DNA from: Microthyrium microscopicum
Taxonomy: Eukaryota
Direction: 5' to 3'
Assembly: GCA_010405405.1 (NCBI GenBank)
Contig: MU004235.1
Span: 1,254,538-1,318,537 of the forward strand
DNA: 64,000 nucleotides
Shown here: piece after piece, positions 5,071 to 56,570 of the stretch
Position numbering within the stretch: the stretch's first letter is position 1
Layout: each line of letters starts with the position of its first letter
Made by a program: the position numbers and the translations under genes
Notes under the pieces: model-generated
Databases searched by the model: none
Seen by the model: the letters and a program-made list of their open reading frames with translations, nothing else
Told to the model about the DNA's origin: nothing

Positions 5071-7002
5071 CTACTCCACATCCCAGTCATGGTCGGAGCT
5101 ACGAACATACGGGGAGAGCATCTGGACATCCCCGCTTGACGTGCCCTTGACATCTCCGTTGCCCAGAAATGCGAAGCGATTCTTGTAACGGTAGCGGTAA
5201 TTGTAATCTTCATAACGTGGACGCTTGATCGATTTAAGGAAGTGGATGGTCTGCGAATATGTTAGCGATCATTGCCTTTTGGGAGCATAGAGGTACTTAC
5301 AGCACCAGGCCACAAGTAAATGCGGTTCTTGATCTTGCCGTCCTTGAACCAACTTCGACAATCTTCTTTCCATACAGTAGCGGTGTGGAACTCGTCAAAG
5401 TGTGCATAGAGCTCATCGAGTGCTTCTTGCTTGACTTCAACAGCCTTGATACCCTCAGTGGAGATCTTTTTGATCATCTGTATCGAGTACTCTATGGTAG
5501 TCTCGATTGACGGAATCAAGGTGCCGTTACTCCAGGTTGCACCTGGTCCAACAATAGTGAAGTAGTTGGGAAAGCGAGGAGCTGACACTCCCATGTATAG
5601 ATTTGGCCCATTCGACCAATCCTCGCTGACTGTCTTACCCTCGCCGTTTATTACACGGAAAGCAGGCTGGAAAGCAACCTTGAAGCCAGTCGCACAGACA
5701 ATGATGTCAACTTCGTGCTCAACGCCGTCGTCTGAAATCACGCCCTTTGGTGAAATACCCTTGATGCCACCGTAGACTGGGGTAACGTTATCCTGAACAA
5801 GAGCTTCAAGGTATCCATCACCAGGCGAGATTCTTCTGCATCCAGGTGCCCATTTTGGAATGATAAACTCCTTGAGCTTGTCGTGTCCAGGACCCATGCG
5901 GCGGTGCATTTCTTTGGTGATGACATCTCTGAACTTGTCGGATAATTCAGAGCCCTGCTTGTACATGCCGAATAAGCTGTTAATCTCAGCCTCGATTCTC
6001 TTTCGGAAGTTCAAGTGATATTCAGGATCGTCGCGGAACTTGTGCATCTCTTCTTCACTGAAGGTGTATTGCCGTTGGCCCGCATCAACCTCTGCTCCCT
6101 TTTGCATATCGGTTTGCAATGCGCCAGCGCCAAACGGAGGGCTGATCCACGTTGGGCTGCGCATGAAGACTTTGACGTTTTTGCAGCATTTCTGTAGTTG
6201 TGGGACGATTTGAACGCTGGTAGATCCGGTACCTATGACAGCCACAGTCTTTCCTTCAAAGTCGACGCCATGGTTCCAAGCTGCGCTGTGCATCAACGAG
6301 CCTTTAAAGTCATGAATGCCGTCGATCTTAGGCCATTCCCAGGTGTTCAAGATTCCGGTACCATTGATGAAAACGTGTGCCCAATCCTTCCATACACCTT
6401 TGTCTTTTTGATTTTCGAGTGTGATGTTCCAGATGCCGTCTGTCTCGTCCCATTTGCCCTCGATGACCTTTGTGTTCAGTTTCATGTACTTTTCAATGCC
6501 TAATGCTTATCAACGACCGCCCATTCCAACGCTATGGGAAGAGTAACTTACCATGTCTCTTGGCAAATCCTTCAAAGTACCCCTGAATGTCTGCTCCTTT
6601 GGCAAAGAACTGTGGCCAGTCCCACTTTGGATCCCAAGTGTAATTATAATCGTGTGCTGGAATATCGCAAGCAATTCCGGGATAGGTATTTTCATACCAA
6701 GTTCCACCAAATTGGGGGTTCTTCTCGTATAAAACCAATTCCCAGCTACCAGGTGTCAACATCTTCTCCAGTTTGTACGCAAGGCAAAGACCAGAAGCAC
6801 CAGCTCCAACACAAGCGATCCGTAGTTTTCGTGGTTTCGAATGATATTGATCTAAGACGCGGTATGGTCCCTCGGGCATGGCTTCAGGATAGTCGAATTC
6901 ATCCACAATGAGGTGTGCGGTTTGAGCTGCATGGCCGTTCACAGCTGGACTGGCAACACCGTTCGCACTGGCTTCACTTGCAGACATTTGAGAGGGTGCC
7001 AT
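5071..7002 (-). CDS. Flavin-binding monooxygenase (BVMO/StcW-like), 3 exons
   Basis: GAGASG; GGTWYENTYPG..CDIP; FKGSLMHSAAW (FxGxxxHxxxW); GTGSTS; CATGF. Introns 6500-6551 and 5251-5300; ends ...DHDWDVE*. Confidence 0.9.
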
Positions 7003-28936: not shown

Positions 28937-29421
28937 ATGTGTGACCCGGGCAATGATGTCCTATCCACTATCATAGCCGATTTAAGCTTGACAGCATCGT
29001 ATAGAGCCAAGATTGAACTGTCTTTGCCAGACATATCAAGTAAAAGACCGCACAACGATATGTTCATATGCTTTAGAGAAGAAATTGTCAATCTAATAAC
29101 CACACTCCACGCCAAAGTCAACCCAGTGTTTTATGCTGGAATGGTAAATGCTGTAATGTTGGAAGATCTTCATAAACTGGCAAATTTTGTCAAGGAGAGT
29201 AGGTTATTCAGGCAAAACAACTGACATGACTTTAAACTTATTGAACCGCAGTGAACTCAGAATTGTGGGACCTACAGAAGCAACTTTCTGATTGTGGAGA
29301 TCCGGTTCCAGGCATGGTCAGACCTTACTGCCAATCCGCATTCAAGAAATTCATGCCAGTGAGAAAAGGTGTGGATTCTCTTGTACAGCACGCATCCTCA
29401 GCTTATATTGGCATGTTTTAG
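28937..29421 (+). CDS. Small helical orphan protein, about 143 aa, 2 exons
   Basis: Intron GTAGGT 29199...CCGCAG 29251 gives an open second exon ending SAYIGMF*; TATATAAA upstream. Confidence 0.55.
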
Positions 29422-29895
29422 GACAGTCAGTGATATATGCACTCAATGTAGCCAATCAGCAACGAGATCAATCAGCCTTACAGCCTCATGGTAAACGTCA
29501 TGCTCAGCCTTATGCTCAGCCTTATACCAATTATATCATGAAGTATAGTCTCTTATGTGTCAAAACAATCTTCTATACGTCACATCAAGAAGCAGTATTA
29601 CCAAAGTTTCAGTCATTAAGTACTTGTTTGATTCCAACAATCTGCCAAGAAATCAAGTGATAAACCATACAAGTCTTCCCTAGTACACGATGCCGCACCC
29701 TGATCGACCGAGAGAATTTCAAGCAAAACAGTAAATGATCTCGCCCTTATTAGTACTGTCGCCTAAACAAAAACTTAAAAAGGCAGCAAGGATAGCCACA
29801 AGATTTGAGAATCTTTGGCATTCCAACCGAAACCAAAACCTAAAAGAGTGTTCAACCATCTGTGTAATGTGCCTCTTGATACAAAGTCCCGGCTT

Positions 29896-29911
29896 CTACA
29901 AGCCAGTGTAG
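29896..29911 (-). promoter_or_regulatory. 3'-UTR hairpin CUACA-CUGGCU-UGUAG (SRE-like), copy 1
   Basis: About 40 nt after the stop of the 29950-30648 gene; conserved in 3 paralog loci. Confidence 0.55.
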
Positions 29912-29949
29912 TAAGCTTGAAACGCTTCAGGTCTTCGTCATGGTTCTAC

Positions 29950-30648
29950 CTAGGAAGCTGAACGCCGTGCCTCGACCGATCTTACGCTGTGTACTTCACC
30001 CACCCCTAGGGGATAATAGCTGTTGATCATCCTACACTGCCATACTAGACGGTACCAATGCTCTCTGGCCCCGTTGTGTGGATCATTGAGAGCATCTCGA
30101 ATATCCTCTACCCATTGGCGCACGGCTTCTTGAGCTTCTTCGTCTTCATCGTAGCCTTCCTCCCCTAGAACGTTTTAGAACCTCCTGTTTTCTAGAAACA
30201 TTCCACAATTGTAGATTGAGAAGCTTACCTAGTAGGTCTCTAATGGTTTCGTAAGCATTCCAGATAACCTCGCCATTTTCCTCGACTAGATTGATTCATG
30301 AGTCAATGATTTGTGCTAATCGTCCTTTCACACATGAGTACTCTTACTTTTTCTCATCCATTCCTCGGCTTCATTGGCAAGTTCCCCTAGACGAGTCCAG
30401 TTCTGAGAACTGCCTTCAGGAATTGCAGGTACATATGCACGAGCTGCATGCATGATAAGATACACGAAAGTGAGTTGATCCTTCCGATCCCATATTGTGC
30501 AGTTGAGGGGGATTCCTGCCGCCCTGAGAGTGGCTTGTAGACTATGGATTTGTTCTATCCGGGATCTCATATGTACATACTGGTCGTCAACCCCTTTCCA
30601 GGCTGAAACGACACCGTTCCGGTAGTCTATCCAGGACAACACTGGCAT
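29950..30648 (-). CDS. Orphan family member A, about 190 aa, 3 exons
   Basis: Two GTAAG..TAG introns give a continuous ORF ...GAREHWYRLVWQCRMINSYY...RSAS*. Confidence 0.65.
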
Positions 30649-30718
30649 CGTTATGATCGATATAGTAGGAAGCTTGTTATTGGAAATGGTTTCCTAAGTA
30701 GGTGTCAGGCTATTCGAA

Positions 30719-30965
30719 TTATGATTGTTTACAAAGATGTAATTGACGTGCACCAGGCACGTATTGAAGTATTGATGTTTTGGGAATGATGAATCAAGAG
30801 AGCAATGAGAAGAGCACACATTATTATACTACATTGGATTTGAATAGTCGTTTGATAGTGGTAACTACTTTCCTTGATCGTTTGGCCGTGGTGTTTACCT
30901 TTTAGAAGATAGACACTCATTCTGACCTCTGCTCTACAAACGTTGGTGTCAACACTGATCAGGAA
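30719..30965 (-). repeat. Conserved upstream promoter/5'-UTR block, copy 1
   Basis: Shares ATGATTGTT, TGCACCAGGCA, a TATA-like box and AGTCGTTTGA.TAGYGGTA.CTAC with 32857-33090 and 34738-34910. Confidence 0.85.
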
Positions 30966-32185
30966 GCACCCAGAAAAGAACATCCATGTCACTGGAAAAC
31001 GCACTTGGGTCGCTTTATGCATCTACGAAGGTTATTGAAACGTTTGGCTCTACCTATTAGACAGTTGTTCATCACAGAATCCGCGATATCCGTTTTTGTA
31101 GCTCTCAGTATCGATATATACATGGGCAAACTCTTATACCTTCGAAATTCAAGCTCTTCAGACTGTACGGCTCGGCCTGAAAGAAGACCTTTTCGGTTTT
31201 TGTCTTATGTCGGAAGACGAAGTTTGATTTGTGGTCAAAGCTATTGGAAAGGGACATGCCTCTGATACTGAGACTGAGAAGCAAGAACTTCTGGAACAGT
31301 GGAAAGTACAGAACATCTACTCGAGGAAGGTGAGTGCATAATCCTCTGATTATGAGCAGGAGAGAGTACAAGCTGATCAAGATTATCCACTAGTCGTACG
31401 ATACGTGCACTGCGCGCTCAGAGAAGTTAAGCGTACTTGTGTCAATCCTGAGCAGGTTAAAGAGTGGCTTATGACCAGCAGGTGGTATTGATATCACTCA
31501 ATGGGGGCTGCAAAAGACATGAGTTGTTGATTAAGATGACATACCTTGGCACCTGTTAGATGGCAACAGAAGTATCAATGGATCCGGTGATGTAGTAACG
31601 AAGCAGTCAAAACTAGTTTGAAAACATCTTGTTTCCCGTAGTGAATTCTACTCTGTTTTGCCTATGTAGATAACTCATGGTTGCAATATGGCTAGCCTGA
31701 GCAGTATCTGTGATATGTTATTATCAAAGATTAGCTTTTTAGGCGCTTATCTTGCGGAAGCATTTATGTGTGGTTTTCTTGGTTATGAGACTTAGGATTA
31801 CGTTGTTCTACCACTACATAGAGACAATGGTAAGTTCAGGTTGTTTTCATATACCGTCATTTTCGTAACTGAGCCAACTTGACATAATGAGCGATCAATG
31901 GCGAAGGCCTTCCCTACACTAATCGCATAGAGCTTCCACAATTTCCAGACGAAACATGAACAGGAGACATCATCAGCCTTGATATTTTCACCGTAGAAGA
32001 TAGACGAAGACCTAGTGATGCCCTCATAAATCCAACGACAAAGGAGTGATCGACAGTAAAAGAAACTCACCGCCTAAATTTGGAAGCACCAGTGAACACC
32101 ACATTAGAAGCAGAAAAGGCATAATCAAAAGCAAAGGAGTGCCCAGAAAATCAATGTCTCCTACCGTACATAGCAAATGAAGCTT

Positions 32186-32201
32186 CTACAATCCGGTGTA
32201 G
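32186..32201 (-). promoter_or_regulatory. 3'-UTR hairpin CUACA-CCGGAU-UGUAG (SRE-like), copy 2
   Basis: Same stem as copies 1 and 3; loop differs but still fits CNGGNN. Confidence 0.55.
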
Positions 32202-32301
32202 TGCGCATGAAAACATCATTCGGAACAGTTCCTTCTGCCTCAATCCTTGGGTCGTGTACCGCGACAAATCACCTTGTGAAGGCGAACTTTTGCTCGCATA
32301 A

Positions 32302-32771
32302 TCATCCCCTCCAGGTGCGTTCAATTTCTTTTGCGGCTTCAACAGCGAGTGCCCAATGCTCTTTGGTCCCGACTGTATCGTTTTCAATCTTGGCGACATC
32401 GCGATTAGGCTTTCCTGCCTCCTCTAGTATGGAAGTCACCCCTAGAAGGGCTATATTTGAACCTTCAATTAGCATGTTGCTCTAAGTCAAATTCATACTT
32501 GGATATACATACCTTCCCGAACGCGGTCACAAAGCGTAATCTCGTCGCCGCCAATATAGGCATTGGAATGCTTTCCCTGCTTAATAATTCGGTCTACTAA
32601 TGCGAGCTCGTAGGGATCCAATATCAAGGTTATGCCTGCTTCATGAAGTATACCCAAAGTTGTGGGGATATCTGTCATTCTGAATATGAGCTGAAAGAGG
32701 TTGAGATCCATGTTGTGCCATGTCGCTAGCTGAGGTGGTTCTGGATAGTCTGGTGAGCCTGTGGAGGCCAT
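32302..32771 (-). CDS. Orphan family member B, about 140 aa, 2 exons
   Basis: Intron GTATGT...GCTAAT..AAG; exon 2 reads ...EEAGKPNRD...GTKEHWALAVEAAKEIERTWRG*. Confidence 0.65.
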
Positions 32772-32856
32772 AAAATTGCCGACAAGAAATGGTATCGTGC
32801 GAGGGCTGTCAGCTTGATGATACTGGTGTAGAAAGAAATAATAGTGTTCTGCAGGT

Positions 32857-33090
32857 GATGATTGTTTTCAAATTTGTATTTGATGTGCACCAGGCACGAA
32901 TTGCTGTATTGATGTTTAGAAGTATTGTTATGTTGTGATGAAGGAAATATGAGTAAGAACAAGAGATCACATTATTTTTATACAGAATTGAAGCTGGACA
33001 GTCGTTTGAATAGTGGTATCTACGTTCTATGAGATAGACGCTGATTCTGGCCTCTGACCAGCAAACGTTGATACCAACACTGTTCATGAA
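32857..33090 (-). repeat. Conserved upstream promoter/5'-UTR block, copy 2
   Basis: Aligns by eye with 30719-30965 over about 230 bp. Confidence 0.85.
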
Positions 33091-33466
33091 CCATTTGTAG
33101 ACACCGGAGTAAACCAGCTCCCACACGTCCCGTTGAGCGACCTTATTGCCCCTTTCTAAAGAAGACATATGTGATACTTTTCCGGTCCAATTAGTAGCTC
33201 AAACGAAGCCTAAGTAACAATCTCTTCCAGGCTCGCTATGACGATTTTCACTGTTACTTGGTCTCCTTAATCGTTGGCCTCATCCTGTCTTCACTCTTGC
33301 ACATAATCATGCCGTCACAAGTGCATTGATCCCCGCTGCGACTGGAACAAAAGCGGACAATCAGCGATGTATTATGCCACAATCAGATTTACATACCTTT
33401 GACAAGGTGACATTCCAAGAGCTTCAAGCGTTCGGCCAAACGAGCGGGCTCCGTGTCAGTGTTACG

Positions 33467-33545
33467 TTTGCCTTTTAATGCTTCAGTTTGCCTTTTAATG
33501 CTTCAGTTTGCCTTTTAATGCTTCAGTTTGCCCTTTAATGCTTCA
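33467..33545. repeat. Tandem 20-bp repeat TTTGCCYTTTAATGCTTCAG, about 4 copies
   Basis: Three perfect units and one unit with a single mismatch. Confidence 0.95.
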
Positions 33546-34064
33546 AGCAGGGTCTTCAACCAGGTCATCTTGTTGGTCACATCGTCTTTGTCCATGAGGA
33601 TAAGGTGGCCGTAACTGTAGCTGCCAACAAGGCGTATCGAGCAAGCTCCGTTCACTTCAATCATCCCGAGGCAACAATGTATATCTAGATGATACCTTTT
33701 TCTTGAAGCTAGAGTCCAGTGGGACAATCACGCCGTTGAAGCTTCTTATTCGAGATATCTTGTTACAAAGATGTGAATTTGATTGTGCATTCAAGCCAAA
33801 AGAGCGGCCAACCATGAAAGTTTGCCTGTACGATCTGCACAAAGCTTTCACAATCTAACTAAACGCAATAAAGAAAAGGATTATTCAGCCATGAATCTCT
33901 GTCTCTGTAAGGAATACTCTGTACGTACTCTTTACAGAGTAAGCCGACCTCCTCAATCGCTCCCGCATATCAAGAAGATATCAACCGTGCCCGCGTGCCT
34001 TGTACAAGACCATCGAAACGAGCCAACTTGATCCTTCTTCTCGGTAACAAGATAAATACAGCTA

Positions 34065-34080
34065 CTACAAGCCAGTGTAG
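34065..34080 (-). promoter_or_regulatory. 3'-UTR hairpin CUACA-CUGGCU-UGUAG (SRE-like), copy 3
   Basis: About 60 nt after the stop of the 34143-34651 gene; stem extends (UA/UA, AGCU/AGCU). Confidence 0.55.
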
Positions 34081-34142
34081 TAAGCTTCGAAAACCTCATT
34101 CCATGTCCATTCATGCTTTGCTAAGCTTGTCATTTCCACAGA

Positions 34143-34651
34143 TCATGTACCCTTGATATCATCTCCCCACTCTATATTGATCCTCTGACACTCCTCGACG
34201 ATCGGCTGCCAAATTTTCTTGAATTCCTCGTTAAGCCGCTTCATTTCTTCATCATTGGGTTCAGGCTTGCCCGCCTCAGCCTGCATGGCTGTGTGAATTT
34301 CCTGAGCTATCAATGAACCATGAATCAGTGGATTGACCCCTTAGGAATCTAATAGTATTCGATGAGGCATACCTTTCTCGAACAAGCTCGGAGAAGCGGG
34401 ACTTGAGCGTTCAAGTTTATCCTAATGGAAGGCTCGCGTTCCGCGCGATAGGTCCTGTAAGTTTCGTATCCATTCATTACGATATTGTCTACTGTCTGTA
34501 CGTCGTCCTTTATGTCGCTGTAGTCAGAAGTTTTGGGTGTCTCGTAAAAGATACCCCCCTCCGTGTTGAGGAAGAGCTTCCAGGCGTGGGTGATGACTTT
34601 CCAATTGGATGGCTCGGATGGCTCGGATGGCTCGGACGGCTCGGATGCCAT
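34143..34651 (-). CDS. Orphan family member C, about 145 aa, 2 exons, N-terminal SEP repeats
   Basis: MASEPSEPSEPS...RACSRK|EIHTAMQAEAGKP...KIWQPIVEECQRINIEW..; acceptor choice (CTCAG at about 34302) is uncertain. Confidence 0.55.
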
Positions 34652-34737
34652 GTTTTTAGCTATAGAAAGACGGTCCGGGAATGTTTTGTCTGGGTTGAAT
34701 CGATGGATATAGAAAGCGATAATCGTATTGTTCAAGT

Positions 34738-34910
34738 AATGATTGTTCTCAGAGTTGTCGTAATTGATATGCACCAGGCATATATTGCAGTAGTAAAGTA
34801 AGTAAAGTGTTGATGTGTGGTGATTAAAGAAACAAGAGTAAGATCCAGACAGCACATATTCTTATACCACATCGGACCTAGAAAGTCGTTTGATAGCGGT
34901 AACTACTTGA
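34738..34910 (-). repeat. Conserved upstream promoter/5'-UTR block, copy 3
   Basis: Same motifs in the same order as copies 1 and 2. Confidence 0.8.
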
Positions 34911-35514
34911 TTGAATGTAAACGGTGTTTCTGGTATTCGCGAAAAGGCTGTGCGCCTAGCTGGTTTGAATATAGCGTTGGATAGTCACGTAATGGGTTTG
35001 GAAAGATGTTTGACTTTGATATCTTAGGGGGTAGTTTCATGTTGCATGGCATTTGGGGGTGAAAGCTGAACATGTTATCTCAGAATGAATGTTTGCAACT
35101 ATAAGATAATGCTATGGTTACTCTAAACCAGCTTTGCTCATCAATGGCAGACGAAAAAATGAACTGAATATCGCTGTGGCCGAGGCTTACTGTAGCTAGC
35201 TACATGGAGAAGATATTCACAGGACGTTGGCGAATCTGGCAGCCATTCCCCCTTTCTAGTGTGTTTACACTGAAGTGTCGTAATTTCCAATGACCGCCAC
35301 GGCGATTGGACTGCTGGTCAGAACGATGAGATAAGAGCATTCCATCAAAGATATATTGTCTAACGATGCTATGTATCCGACGTATCCAAACGTCTCATGC
35401 TATATGCAATGCAAAACCGAAATATCTAACCACCCATGCAATCACAAAACCACCAGCCTCTGCTATACCCGCTTCCATATCAAAGAGGCAGCTCGTCATC
35501 GGACCACGCAGTCA

Positions 35515-37657
35515 CTATGCTCGCTGAGCTTTACCACTGAGCACTTCTCGCGGCAAGCATGCAAATACGGTGCTAACAACCGCCATAATCGTGCTAGCAA
35601 TGAGCAGTCCCCAATTCAGCATCTTCTCACTCTTCCCAAACTCATGTCCAAACAGCCTCAAATGAAAGCCAACAGGCAACATAATGCAGATACTGAAGCA
35701 GCAAACAGAGCCCAGCAGTGTCATGATGCGATCAAAAGATGGGAATAGCATCGCAATGACTACGAACACCACTACAATGCCAACGCGGATCAGGACGCGC
35801 GCGAGATTGGCGCCAAACGAAAACCGTGAGCTGTTTCCTTCTTCTTCACTGCCATGTCCATGGGACATGTTTCCATAGTCAACGAGGCCAAAGATAACTT
35901 CGACAGTCGTGACGATCGGGCGCGCATTGAGCGGGACTTTGGTGAGAGGGATGATGGCGATGCAGATGACGATGAATAGTGAAAGGCCTGGTGGGTAGGC
36001 GTCGCCTAGTAAGAGAATGTTGCTGGTGATTTCGTCGTGGACGCCATCGCCGAACATGAGGAGGCCGATGACGGCCATGCCAAGGTCGAGGGCGCCGGTG
36101 AAGATGTAGGTGATGTTGACAGCGCGACGGTACTTGTAGGGGTGGCGCATGTCGCGGTAGATATTGGGGAAGACGGAGTGTCCGCCCCATGGGGACATTA
36201 GGAGACCGAAGGCGAGTGGGACGGTTTGCCACCGTTGCGGGAAGAGGTAAGTGGTTGCTGGAGCGCGGAGAGAGCCTGGGGTTTCTGGTTTGAGAATGCC
36301 ATCTGTGACGACGGCAAGGAAGACTGTATGCGTTTAGTTTAGTGCTAAGAGGTATTTGATAGTAAACTTACTGCCGAGGCAGCTCAAGATTCCCAAAACG
36401 CTGGTGAAGCTCAAGAGACGCAGAGGGAGGAAGCTTAGCGGAATAAGAAGAATGCCGCAGAAGAGCTTCCATGCAAGTACGCTCCATCCGGGCAATAGAG
36501 CGTTCAAGCTATCAGCAAACAGAATAATTAATGCAACGCAAGCGGCAATAAGTTCCAAGCTAAACAAAATGCTGGTGGCAATGCGAGCTCGTGGTCCAAA
36601 TGAGACATACGCTAAATCGGCAAACGTGACGAGTGAGTTATCTACGTCCAAGCATTTTGCGAGAAGTTTGGCGGTGTACTGAGTAGACAGCACGGCGAAA
36701 AAGAAAAATACTATGCCGATCACCCATCCGGAATATAGCAGTCCCAATGGCATACTGAGAAGACCCACGCCAATCAAGACATTGATAGAGTTGAAAACAG
36801 TCTGTGGTAATGTCGACCGCCCAACAACGACGTTGTATACCACCCCATCTTCTTCAACTTGCTTCAGCACGAGTGGCTCCAGCTCCGGCTCTACCTCCGC
36901 TCCAGTGATGTTTTTGACTTGTTCCTCATTGAAGATCTGGGCAGCGTGAACCATACTAGGCTGACGCGGCCGAGCTTGTCGACTGCCGTACATGGTGCCA
37001 TATGAGCCGCCGAAACCAGAAGCTAGAGAGGGCTCGACAGCGAATATCGAGTCCGTCCATGATGGTGGAACTCTACCAATCCTACTAGAGCTTGCACGCA
37101 ACGGAGTCTCTTCTGTTGGTGTGACCTCTCCTTCTCCACCACGAGACTCGTCTATAACATTATCCGATCCACGACGGCCCTCTTCGAGTGCTTGACGAAG
37201 CAATGATCTCGACGCATCAGGAGAGTTTTCGATATCGCTTTTGAGATAGGATGGTTCTCCTTCTTCATCGTTTGCAAATCGGAAGGACGGGCGGATAGGA
37301 GCGATTTCGTGAAAACCGGCAGCACGCTGCCATGATTGGGCAAAGTTATCAATTGAGTTGACACCACCAATCTGCCGAAGCTGATTGATCTTGACATTGA
37401 ATGAAGACCTTGATAATTGGTTAGCTTATTTCCTTGGTCGATATGGAACACGCGTACCTCCGTCGTCGGAGAACATGAAGTCGATCGTCATCATCACCTT
37501 GGTGCGAGGTTGACGATGTTCTGCTAGGCTGTCCATGGCGAGGCGGACTCTGGCTCTCATCCCATTGCACTCTACTTCCAATTGAACCTGGAGAGCCAGC
37601 TCGGCCACCACTCTCGTAGTTTTGCCATGTTGACGGCTGTTTTCCTGGCGTGCTCAT
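35515..37657 (-). CDS. AVT1: Vacuolar amino acid transporter (AVT1-like, AAAP family)
   Basis: STLPQTVFNSINVLIGVGLLSMPLG, PWGGHSVFPNIYRDMRHP, PLTKVPLNARP; many TM segments. Confidence 0.9.
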
Positions 37658-53619: not shown

Positions 53620-54489
53620 TAATACATCCTATAAAATCTAATGTATTAGTACTAGTACGCTTTAATAATTCGGATACTCTCTGGTGAGAGGCTTATTAAC
53701 GAAGAAGCTAAGAATAAATAGCAAGTCGAACGCCCTTAGACATAATTCCGTGCTTACAAAGTTTGCCACCTAGAAATGGTCATTTAAAGAGCAAAGGAGA
53801 ATTCATTTAATAAAGATTCTAATGAAAGTGATAGTGCCTGTAACCCTGACCGTTAAGCCTGAACCAGGAAGGTGGCTATTAACACTAGAGCGAGGAGGCT
53901 GTTTGACAATGCCTCCTTCGGCAAGCTGTCGCATTATCTGCGATGCGCTTTCGACAATCCTTTGCGATGTGATCTGTCCTACCGCAGTGAACGAGGGTTT
54001 CCACCACTCCCCATGTGACATGACCTGCTTGATTGCCGTGACTAGAGACATGATTGTAGTACTCAAGTCCCGCATCAGCTTGAGACAATCGATGGTGAGA
54101 TGATCGCAGATAGGTATAGCCAACGGCCATTCGCGGTCTTACCGCCTTGCTCAGCTTGTTCTTTTTAAGGAGTCGCGGTCTACAAAGAGTTCGATATGAG
54201 CCGGATTTGGAGAAGCCACCTACATTTTGGTTGAGACCCGAGGATCAATGGTTGGTGCCCTGAGGTTTTGGCTTGTGGAATCGATATTGATGATGAGAGT
54301 GTCGACAGCGAGGATTTGCTGGTGAACGTGGTGTTGGAGTCTAGCGTATGGATCCGTCGTCCTGTGAGCACTGAGGGGATGACTGGAGGCTCAGATTGAG
54401 AATGGCCACCAAGTCCGCAATAGAAAAAGGCGCGCGGTGGAGTAGCCTTCGAAGGTGGACTCATTCTAAGGAGCAAACTTCCTATGCGC

Positions 54490-56570
54490 AGGAAGCGCCC
54501 AAGATACCTAAAGAAAGATATCGGACTATTATACATATGCTCTGTTTAAGGTTCTGAACAAGATTTAAGACGTCCGTAGTGGAAATAAAGCGTCTGGTAC
54601 TTGTAAAGTAGCATTCAAAGATGCTTGTAGGCTCATGTTAGGGTGCGAACTTCCTACACTTACTCTGGAAGCGCTCAAGACACCTGAAGAAAGATATCGG
54701 ACTATTATACATATGCTCTATTGAAGGTTCTAAACAAGATTTCAGACATCCGTAATAGAAATATAGAGTCCGGTATTGGTAAAGTAGAACTCAAAGGTAG
54801 GCTCATTTTACTAGAAGCGCCCCAAACACTTGAAGAAAGATATCGGACTAGTACATATATGCTTTATCCAACGTTATGAACGAGATTTACGACGTCCGTA
54901 GTGGAAATAAAGTGTCCGGTAACCGTATAGTGGCATTTGAAGGTGGGCTCAATCTAGAGAGCTTCCTATACGCTGGGAGCGCCCTAAATACCTACAGAAA
55001 TATATCGGACTATTATATATATGATCTAGCTAACGGTGTAAGCGGATTTAAGAAGTCCGCAATGAAAACAAAGCGTCCGGTAATTGTACAGTAGCATTTG
55101 AAGGTGAGCTCAATCCATGAATTTTCAGCGAAGTTTCCATACGCAGGGAGCGCCACAAATAACCAAAACAAGGTATCGGACTAACGTTTTCATATTTGAT
55201 CTAACAGTATGAACAAATGTCGAGACGTCCGGCAAAAACAGTGATATTATAGAGCTTTTCCCTGGTAGTTGGGTTGGTGTCCTACTCTCCTGGTTTAAGC
55301 AGGAGAGACATTTCTTCGTAGTCGCCAGGAAATGTTCCCAGAGTCTTGCAAAATTTATCGGACTCTCGGATATATAACTGACTTGGTATTCCTTACTAAG
55401 TGAAGTCGGTCCGAAATAAAGAAAGATCTTATAGAGATTTGTAGAAGGTCGAGTACCTCGTTAATTGCCAGTGGCTTTTGATGGAAGATGCTGCATGCAT
55501 TTTCTCTGGCTGGTAAAACTGGCTCCCAATCCAGATGCTGCTTGATCGCCAAATGATTCTCCAATCGGACTTTCAAAATATATACAACTTTGCAATCCTT
55601 ATCGGAAAAACTTAGTCCGATAGAAAGAAAGACCTTGTGGCGATTCGTGGGAGGTCGAGTACTTGCACTTTCACTCTTACAGCGCGCCGTATCTTGTTGG
55701 CTGCAATTGGCTGGTACGCTGGCTCCCAATCCAGATGCTGCTTGATCGCCAAAGGATTTTCCAATCGGACTTTCAAAATATATACAACTTTGCAATCCTT
55801 ATCAGAAAATCTTAGTCCGATAGAAAGAAAGACCTTGTGGCGATTCATGGGAGGTCGAGTACTTACACTTTCACTCTTACAGCGCGCCGTATCTTGTTGG
55901 CTGCAATTGGCTGGTACGCTGGCTCCCAATTCAGTTATTGCTTGATCGCCAAATAGTTTTTCTATCGGACTTTCAAAATGTGTATAGCTTGGCAATCTGT
56001 ACTAGATAGAAATAATCCGATAGAAGGAAAGACCTTGTGGCGATTCAAGGGAGGTCGAGTACCTTGTTGGCTGGCTCCATTTTGGTGGGAGGTGCATTTT
56101 CCTTCGTTGGTACTGTAACGCTTAATTGGTCAATAGTTTTCTATCGGACTTTCAAAATATGTATAGCTTGGGAATCCTTACAGGGTAGAATTGGTCCGAT
56201 AGAAATAAACATGAATGTGGCGGATTTCAGTCAAGTTCTTCGTTGGTTGGCTTTTGGGGAGATGCATTTTTAGCTGGACACGCCGGAGTTCAAAATGTTG
56301 CGGACATTTGACTGCCAAGGACTTTTTTCAATCGGACTGCGAAATATCTACGCAGTTTTACATTGCCTACATAATGCATTTAGTCCGAAATAAATCAAGC
56401 TCGTAGATGGGTGTGGTTCCGCAATTCCATACAGTTTTGTACTCTACATTGGCGTGTTTGGAAAAAATCGCCCACTATTTCTCCTTAACTCTAGAGATAT
56501 TTTCCGGACCGCCGGAGATGCATCCAATTCTACGTTCGTTACGAGATGCTCTAGGTCCGACTCGTCCGAA
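54490..56570. repeat. Array of 12 diverged units, each containing CGGAC-N44/45-(G/A)TCCG; period 146-207 bp
   Basis: CGGAC starts at 54522, 54698, 54844, 55006, 55177, 55359, 55566, 55766, 55966, 56145, 56333 and 56505; includes near-identical 200-bp duplications at about 55520-55980. Confidence 0.9.

Follow-up and report, generated by a model that had tools for sequence, protein, structure and literature searches.

Paired CNGG-loop hairpins in the conserved flanks of three tandem orphan genes of Microthyrium microscopicum as candidate Smaug/Vts1-type recognition elements

Why should three neighbouring small genes of the leaf-surface fungus Microthyrium microscopicum carry the same type of hairpin in front of their start codons, next to first exons that share no detectable similarity? 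The genes lie in a window of 64,000 nucleotides (nt), that is, the whole stretch of DNA analysed here (assembly GCA_010405405.1, contig MU004235.1, positions 1,254,538 to 1,318,537 of the forward strand; all coordinates below are those of the window). It has a G+C content of 46% and its open reading frames (ORFs) include P450, monooxygenase and polyketide synthase-like ones, features that fit a filamentous ascomycete. From about 29,600 to 35,000 it holds three tandem small-gene units, all on the minus strand; in each of them an ORF of 86-107 codons starts with an ATG and one intron or more is present. The ATGs are at 30648 (unit 1), 32771 (unit 2) and 34651 (unit 3). An earlier note on this DNA had proposed that a hairpin with a CUGGU loop in the 5' untranslated region (UTR) of each gene is an element like those recognised by the SAM-domain proteins Smaug and Vts1. 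Judged from the sequence, the three 5' hairpins are homologous parts of a 5' block that is common to these tandem, fast-diverging small orphan genes. A second hairpin with a CNGG loop, which is new here and absent from the earlier note, lies downstream of the stop codons. That both hairpins may be Smaug/Vts1 recognition element (SRE)-type elements of the sense-strand RNA is the best single reading, held tentatively and put by us somewhat short of even.

The three 5' hairpins are indeed present where the earlier note had placed them, on the minus strand. The copy of unit 1 (30746..30762) reads ACGTGC-CTGGT-GCACGT and that of unit 3 (34767..34783) ATATGC-CTGGT-GCATAT, both with a stem of 6 base pairs (bp), and the copy of unit 2 (32885..32897) reads GTGC-CTGGT-GCAC with a stem of 4 bp. 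The loop CTGGT is invariant in all three. As had been described (about 100-115 nt before the ATG and 3' of a TATA-like box), the 3' edges of the hairpins lie 98, 114 and 116 nt before the ATGs of units 1, 2 and 3. The 9-mer GCCTGGTGC occurs four times in the window at an expectation of 0.38, and none of 100 shuffles reached four; three of the occurrences are the hairpins and the fourth, at 5302-5310, is stemless and lies inside an unrelated ORF. With the structure given, 16 of the 18 cells of the three copies are paired and three of the six pairs never vary. Two of the six stem pairs are altered on both sides between copies 1 and 3 with the pairing kept; slid controls gave no double change at all.

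These hairpins are part of a 5' block about 190 nt in length, whose 3' end is 50-64 nt away from the ATG and whose copies are 70-75% identical in pairwise comparison (70-71% for unit 1 against the other units). It was found by nhmmer on the minus strand at 30698..30870 in unit 1 (E 2.4e-48), where it comprises the TATA-like box, a pyrimidine-rich tract, the hairpin and the motif AACAATCAT, at 32835..33025 in unit 2 (E 8.4e-53) and at 34715..34908 in unit 3 (E 1.8e-56); a search of the window with the block profile revealed no further copy. The longest invariant run of the block is the 11-mer TGCCTGGTGCA, which contains the hairpin loop and the inner stem. A GTATAANAAT box is located 66-83 nt upstream of the hairpin in all three units: as GTATAATAAT at 30820..30829 in unit 1 (66 nt before the hairpin), as GTATAAAAAT at 32974..32983 in unit 2 (83 nt before the hairpin position) and as GTATAAGAAT at 34858..34867 in unit 3 (83 nt before the hairpin), each on the minus strand. 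Metagenome scans with one pattern outside the hairpin and one on the hairpin, patterns that recover all three copies of the window where tested, gave zero loci each.

Short reading frames cross the block on both strands. Right after the TATA-like box an ATGTG is conserved, which opens upstream ORFs (uORFs) that run in the same frame through the hairpin in units 1 and 3 (minus strand, 30729-30826 and 34732-34860); the one of unit 2 (32969-32974) closes at once (ATG-TGA). On the plus strand a short ORF (MIV...HQA...) spans the hairpin in all three units (30721-30789, 32858-32938 and 34742-34801), and its start is the complement of the AACAATCAT motif. The plus-strand micro-ORF is probably a by-product of the conservation of the DNA, and we judge the minus-strand uORFs to be by-products of the same kind.

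After the stop codons there is only one conserved block, and it holds the second sense-strand hairpin, CTACA-CNGGNT-TGTAG, in all three units. The 3' block is about 35 nt long, begins 70-160 nt past the stop codons and has an identity of 73-85%; its copies on the minus strand are at 29890..29922 (unit 1, nhmmer E 9e-10), 32177..32212 (unit 2, E 1.4e-09) and 34057..34091 (unit 3, E 7.1e-10). Within it, the hairpin of unit 1 (29896..29911, CTACA-CTGGCT-TGTAG) is located 70 nt past the stop codon of the annotated protein, that of unit 2 (32186..32201, CTACA-CCGGAT-TGTAG) about 100 nt past the stop codon, and that of unit 3 (34063..34082) has a stem of 7 bp, the loop CTGGCT and an AGCT/AGCT extension. 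The stem is invariant, with 23 of 24 cells paired, and unit 2 differs from the others at two places of the 3' loop, 2 and 5, both of which are N positions. How often would such a hairpin arise by chance? The window has 11 perfect stems of at least 5 bp around CNGG(N)0-3 loops, compared with 6.5 ± 2.4 for Markov shuffles; five of these 11 belong to the three units, and all five have the sense orientation. From the Markov rate for such stems (6.54 per 128,000 strand positions) we estimate the chance of one in a 42-nt block at about 0.002.

Similarity between the units at the DNA level is confined to the 5' and the 3' block. Per window of 60 columns, identity is 62-85% in the 5' block and 26-56% in the coding region, the latter being near the background of a forced alignment. 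BLASTP among the first exons of the three genes found no similarity, and the proteins of genes 1 and 2 gave no match at all; a relationship is visible between genes 2 and 3 in the frames of their second exons (34% identity over 56 residues, E 3e-6). Since conserved blocks stand beside first exons that cannot be aligned, the flanks are constrained and the coding parts not; by this comparison both blocks are clearly under constraint. Repeat-induced point mutation (RIP) as the cause of the divergence was ruled out by the transition/transversion ratio of the 5' block, which is 0.66-1.6 and not RIP-like. Ends of a Helitron or another mobile element were considered by eye and discarded as well: genes 2 and 3 have homologous coding parts, and no terminal signatures were seen. 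A search of the literature on hypervariable fungal families flanked by conserved UTRs listed no relevant paper.

Is the DNA that encodes these hairpins found in RNA? The evidence comes from one public run, whose type is presumed, that was compared with positions 29600-35000 and covers unit 3 only, the gaps in its cover carrying no information. A single contig of 1276 nt covers 33804-34306 and 34373-35000, with 145 letters more beyond 35000. The 66 nt that it skips (34307..34372, minus strand) are bounded by GT..AG on the minus strand; thus, the contig stems from spliced minus-strand RNA, and unit 3 (transcribed region 33804..35000, minus strand, with the ATG at 34651 and, in the assembled isoform, the stop codon at 34241-34243) is expressed, with both of its hairpins inside RNA-derived sequence. 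The mean word depth of the contig is 121.8; assembled contigs of this kind carry no start site, leader strand or expression level.

In its wider form the SRE loop is written CNGG(N)0-3. The narrower description is a stem of at least 4 bp with a tetra- or pentaloop CNGGN(0-1), a G at loop position 3 and complementary loop positions 1 and 4, as given in three papers (PMC3045596, PMC2683727, PMC9893680). According to the first of them, Vts1 strongly prefers an oriented G:C closing pair (21 of 23 selected clones; PMC3045596). The yeast protein Vts1p is described as working via Ccr4-Pop2-Not and Eap1-stimulated decapping on reporters with SREs in the 3' UTR (PMC3468468), and a preprint places Vts1 in the filamentous ascomycete Magnaporthe (bioRxiv 10.1101/2023.08.19.553964). 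At the locus, the stems are 6, 4 and 6 bp long in the 5' hairpins and 5, 5 and 7 bp in the 3' hairpins, and the CTGGT pentaloop of the 5' hairpin has the SRE form in all three copies. As in the SREs of Vts1p (yeast), Smaug (fly) and SAMD4 (mammals), the candidate elements are short CNGG-loop hairpins; they would probably also share the position on the mRNA sense strand and the presence of more than one per transcript. In contrast, one of the two would be in the 5' leader here, whereas the SREs characterised in the cited work are located in 3' UTRs or ORFs and not in 5' leaders (PMC3468468, PMC9893680).

Folding predictions bear on the same point. Without a structure being given, RNAalifold predicted just two helices for the leader, one of them the 5' hairpin, and it recovered the 3' hairpin together with an outer GCT/AGC extension. 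The minimum-free-energy folds of the leaders contain the 5' hairpin in two of the three units (1 and 3, not 2), and the fold energies of the 5' copies are -2.8 to -6.9 kcal/mol. For the 5' hairpin of unit 1 the pair probability was 0.85-1.0 with 40 nt of context on either side, 0.85-1.0 with 100 nt and 0.09 with 200 nt; for that of unit 3 it was 0.45, 0.07 and 0.07. The 3' hairpin of unit 2 gave 0.85, 0.6 and 0.1 in the same contexts, and the inner pairs of the 3' hairpin of unit 3 stayed at about 1.0 in all of them. Rfam covariance models scanned over 29000-36000 on both strands at E up to 1 had no match. The SRE-type reading is strengthened by the second hairpin, the consistent strand, the transcription of unit 3 and the consensus folds obtained de novo. 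Sequence, conservation, pairing and the spliced transcript of unit 3 are observed; recognition at the level of the RNA instead of the DNA, the role of Vts1 as the reader and the direction of the effect are what we infer beyond this.

A considerable number of observations weigh against an SRE-type RNA element. On the side of folding, the leader folds are no stabler than those of shuffled sequences (z -1.28, -0.96 and +1.45), and the pair probability of several copies collapses when the context is widened. That of the unit 2 5' hairpin is at most 0.21 in any of the three contexts, and that of the unit 1 3' hairpin is 0.01-0.02 throughout, due to a competing fold. The likeness to Smaug/Vts1 elements that the earlier note had seen holds for the CNGGN loop and the stem of at least 4 bp but not for the closing pair, which is C:G in the 5' hairpin and A:U in the 3' hairpin instead of the preferred oriented G:C; in addition, the 3' loops have 6 nt (CTGGCT twice, CCGGAT once) and fit only the wider CNGG(N)0-3 form. 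Only three related copies are available for comparison, all of them from this window.

The stem changes had been called compensatory. Two double-sided swaps between copies 1 and 3 around a fixed loop are indeed there, but they are not significant, the observed covariation among the three sequences being reached by 113 of 500 shuffles. Moreover, the four stem changes amount to the replacement of a CG dinucleotide by TA in each of the two arms, so that a mutational bias could mimic compensation. In copy 2 the stem is reduced to 4 bp, with C.A and U.U as the next two pairs; its half-changed pair is C.A in the sense strand, and the antisense strand would have a G.U wobble at that place. Covariation is entirely absent from the 3' stem. 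Two motifs outside the hairpin, TCAAACGACT and AACAATCAT (10 and 9 nt), are nearly as conserved as the 11-mer, and thus the block could be a promoter. The RNA contig extends upstream past the TATA-like box, so transcription starts further upstream or the contig joins two overlapping transcripts. Finally, the claim of the earlier note that the hairpins silence the family does not agree with the assembly of a unit 3 transcript at the depth given above; the RNA of this unit is present rather than silenced.

What else could have conserved the hairpin sequences? One answer, which we regard as fairly unlikely, is an element read in the DNA: the 5' block would be a promoter and the 11-mer, together with the symmetry of its flanks, a transcription-factor site near the start, with the RNA fold being incidental. 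This would account for the TATA-like box at a fixed spacing of 16 nt from another invariant motif, for two or more other invariant motifs in the block, none of which forms a hairpin, for the invariance of the entire 11-mer including its non-symmetric loop, as in sequence-specific DNA recognition, for the retention of the 11-mer in copy 2 although its outer pairing is lost, and for the weak pairing of several copies in the RNA predictions. However, a reader of a fixed half-site does not predict double-sided changes that keep complementarity, the second CNGG-loop hairpin 70-160 nt past the stop codons is left unexplained, and in unit 3 RNA-derived sequence includes the region. Nor did we recognise a known fungal factor site there, no search having been aimed at one. 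An RNA hairpin with another job, for instance a leader structure for scanning or uORF use or the site of another RNA-binding protein, with the CNGG being coincidental, is quite unlikely in our estimation. Judged from the 66-83 nt spacing, use of the TATA-like box would place the hairpin within roughly the first 10-50 nt of the mRNA, and the conserved ATGTG as well as the absence of 5' leaders among the locations of the SREs characterised in the cited work fit such a role. On the other hand, hairpins of the stability calculated above are weak for it, the immediate closure of the uORF in unit 2 does not fit, and the CNGG start that the 3' loop shares with the 5' loop remains without an explanation.

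Shared ancestry alone would require no function of the hairpins: the blocks could be what is left of a tandem triplication, its slowest-decaying or gene-converted parts, with palindromes that arose by chance. We consider this unlikely. It is consistent with there being three copies only, with the lack of significant covariation and with CG-to-TA changes as expected from mutation bias. Furthermore, CNGG-loop hairpins with stems of at least 4 bp occur in the whole window at the chance rate (25 against 25.4 expected), and a 6-bp hairpin within a block of 190 nt is not rare by our own estimate. Yet a block identity of 70-75% beside first exons that cannot be aligned needs either constraint or very local conversion, and two independent hairpins of the same loop type, one in each block, are improbable given the chance estimated above for the second. 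The longest invariant run, moreover, coincides with the loop and the inner stem.

If both hairpins are SRE-type elements, how could they act? A Vts1-type SAM-domain protein would bind the loop, with the G at position 3 presented over a pair of C1 and G4. The bound protein would then recruit the Ccr4-Pop2-Not deadenylase and decapping factors, and this recruitment could tune the half-life or the translation of the mRNAs of all family members, with the coding parts being left free to evolve. It is tempting to go one step further and to regard the pair of UTR cassettes (the leader of about 190 nt and the 3' block of about 35 nt, each with a CNGG-loop hairpin), and not the protein, as the selected heritable unit. 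The ORFs between the cassettes would turn over almost freely, their first exons being unrelated and one copy being frameshifted, and a Vts1-type module for post-transcriptional control would shelter and co-regulate new or rapidly diversifying small proteins. We think this extension very doubtful.

Comparable arrangements are known from other systems. Iron-responsive elements are small conserved UTR hairpins with a sequence-specific loop, one protein reader and an outcome that depends on position. Only this logic is shared; the loop and bulge sequences at the locus differ and there is no context of iron metabolism. In the toxin superfamilies of cone snails, UTRs and flanks are better conserved among paralogues than the coding sequence. 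The fungal genes likewise have flanks with stronger conservation than the coding sequence, but it is a tandem triplet whose first exons are without detectable similarity and without an obvious signal peptide by eye. Outside budding yeast and animals, hardly any natural targets of Vts1-type proteins are known, and for filamentous fungi the papers found describe nothing more than the protein itself. An SRE-like hairpin pair around hypervariable orphan genes would be a concrete, testable target set, and it would be an example of a regulatory RNA that outlives the coding sequence under its control. Should the hairpins turn out to belong to promoter DNA or to be fortuitous, nothing would set the locus apart from an ordinary family of tandem orphans.

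The orphan status of the family, as claimed before, was borne out within the scope of the protein searches, which were subject to length limits: for gene 1 only its own record was found, and for genes 2 and 3 there was none. Gene 1 (coding region 29982..30648, minus strand, with several introns) is annotated as a hypothetical protein of 153 amino acids. This protein of M. microscopicum, a singleton cluster (P0001), is the only protein record that matches the locus, and it is 97% identical to the first-exon ORF of gene 1. The same ORF searched against 1.84 billion representatives returned the own record and three repetitive proteins only, and the latter were judged spurious; the full P0001 searched against a collection of 5.8 billion proteins matched itself only. 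In our model, gene 2 (32302..32771, minus strand) starts at the ATG at 32771, has an intron near 32512 and ends with the stop codon at 32302-32304. Protein searches with exon 1 of gene 2 and with exon 1 of gene 3 gave no match, not even to an own record. The first-exon products of both genes are thus absent from the 5.8-billion-protein collection, despite unit 3 being transcribed and spliced. Seven exon pieces searched against Pfam had no match above threshold and three weak ones below it (E 0.05-0.25). The ESM Atlas gave no confident fold and AlphaFold2 no usable one (mean predicted local distance difference test score, pLDDT, 42.6).

Some features of gene 3 and its surroundings may be added. 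The assembled isoform comprises 93 + 21 codons and then a stop, and its exon 2 is read in a frame other than the one with homology to gene 2 (34241-34373, minus strand); a second AG 5 nt downstream of the acceptor would restore the conserved frame. At 34605-34645 a 9-nt unit is repeated four times and encodes (EPS) repeats at the N terminus of the gene 3 product. Upstream of the 5' block of unit 3, but still in the RNA contig, there is a stop-to-stop frame of 58 codons (34903-35079, minus strand), 56 of them from the first ATG. Further upstream, two long ORFs at 35518-37425 (minus strand) are amino-acid transporter-like by eye; their 3' end and the inferred end of the RNA contig are about 370 nt apart, and read-through into unit 3 is possible.

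The window also contains other repeats. A 20-nt tandem repeat of about five copies (family D7; 33446-33565) is located in the spacer that separates unit 2 from the 3' end of the transcript of unit 3. Far from the three units there are long tandem arrays (54478-56405, families D1-D8), which have periods of 146-206 nt and an ATCGGACT-like core in common.

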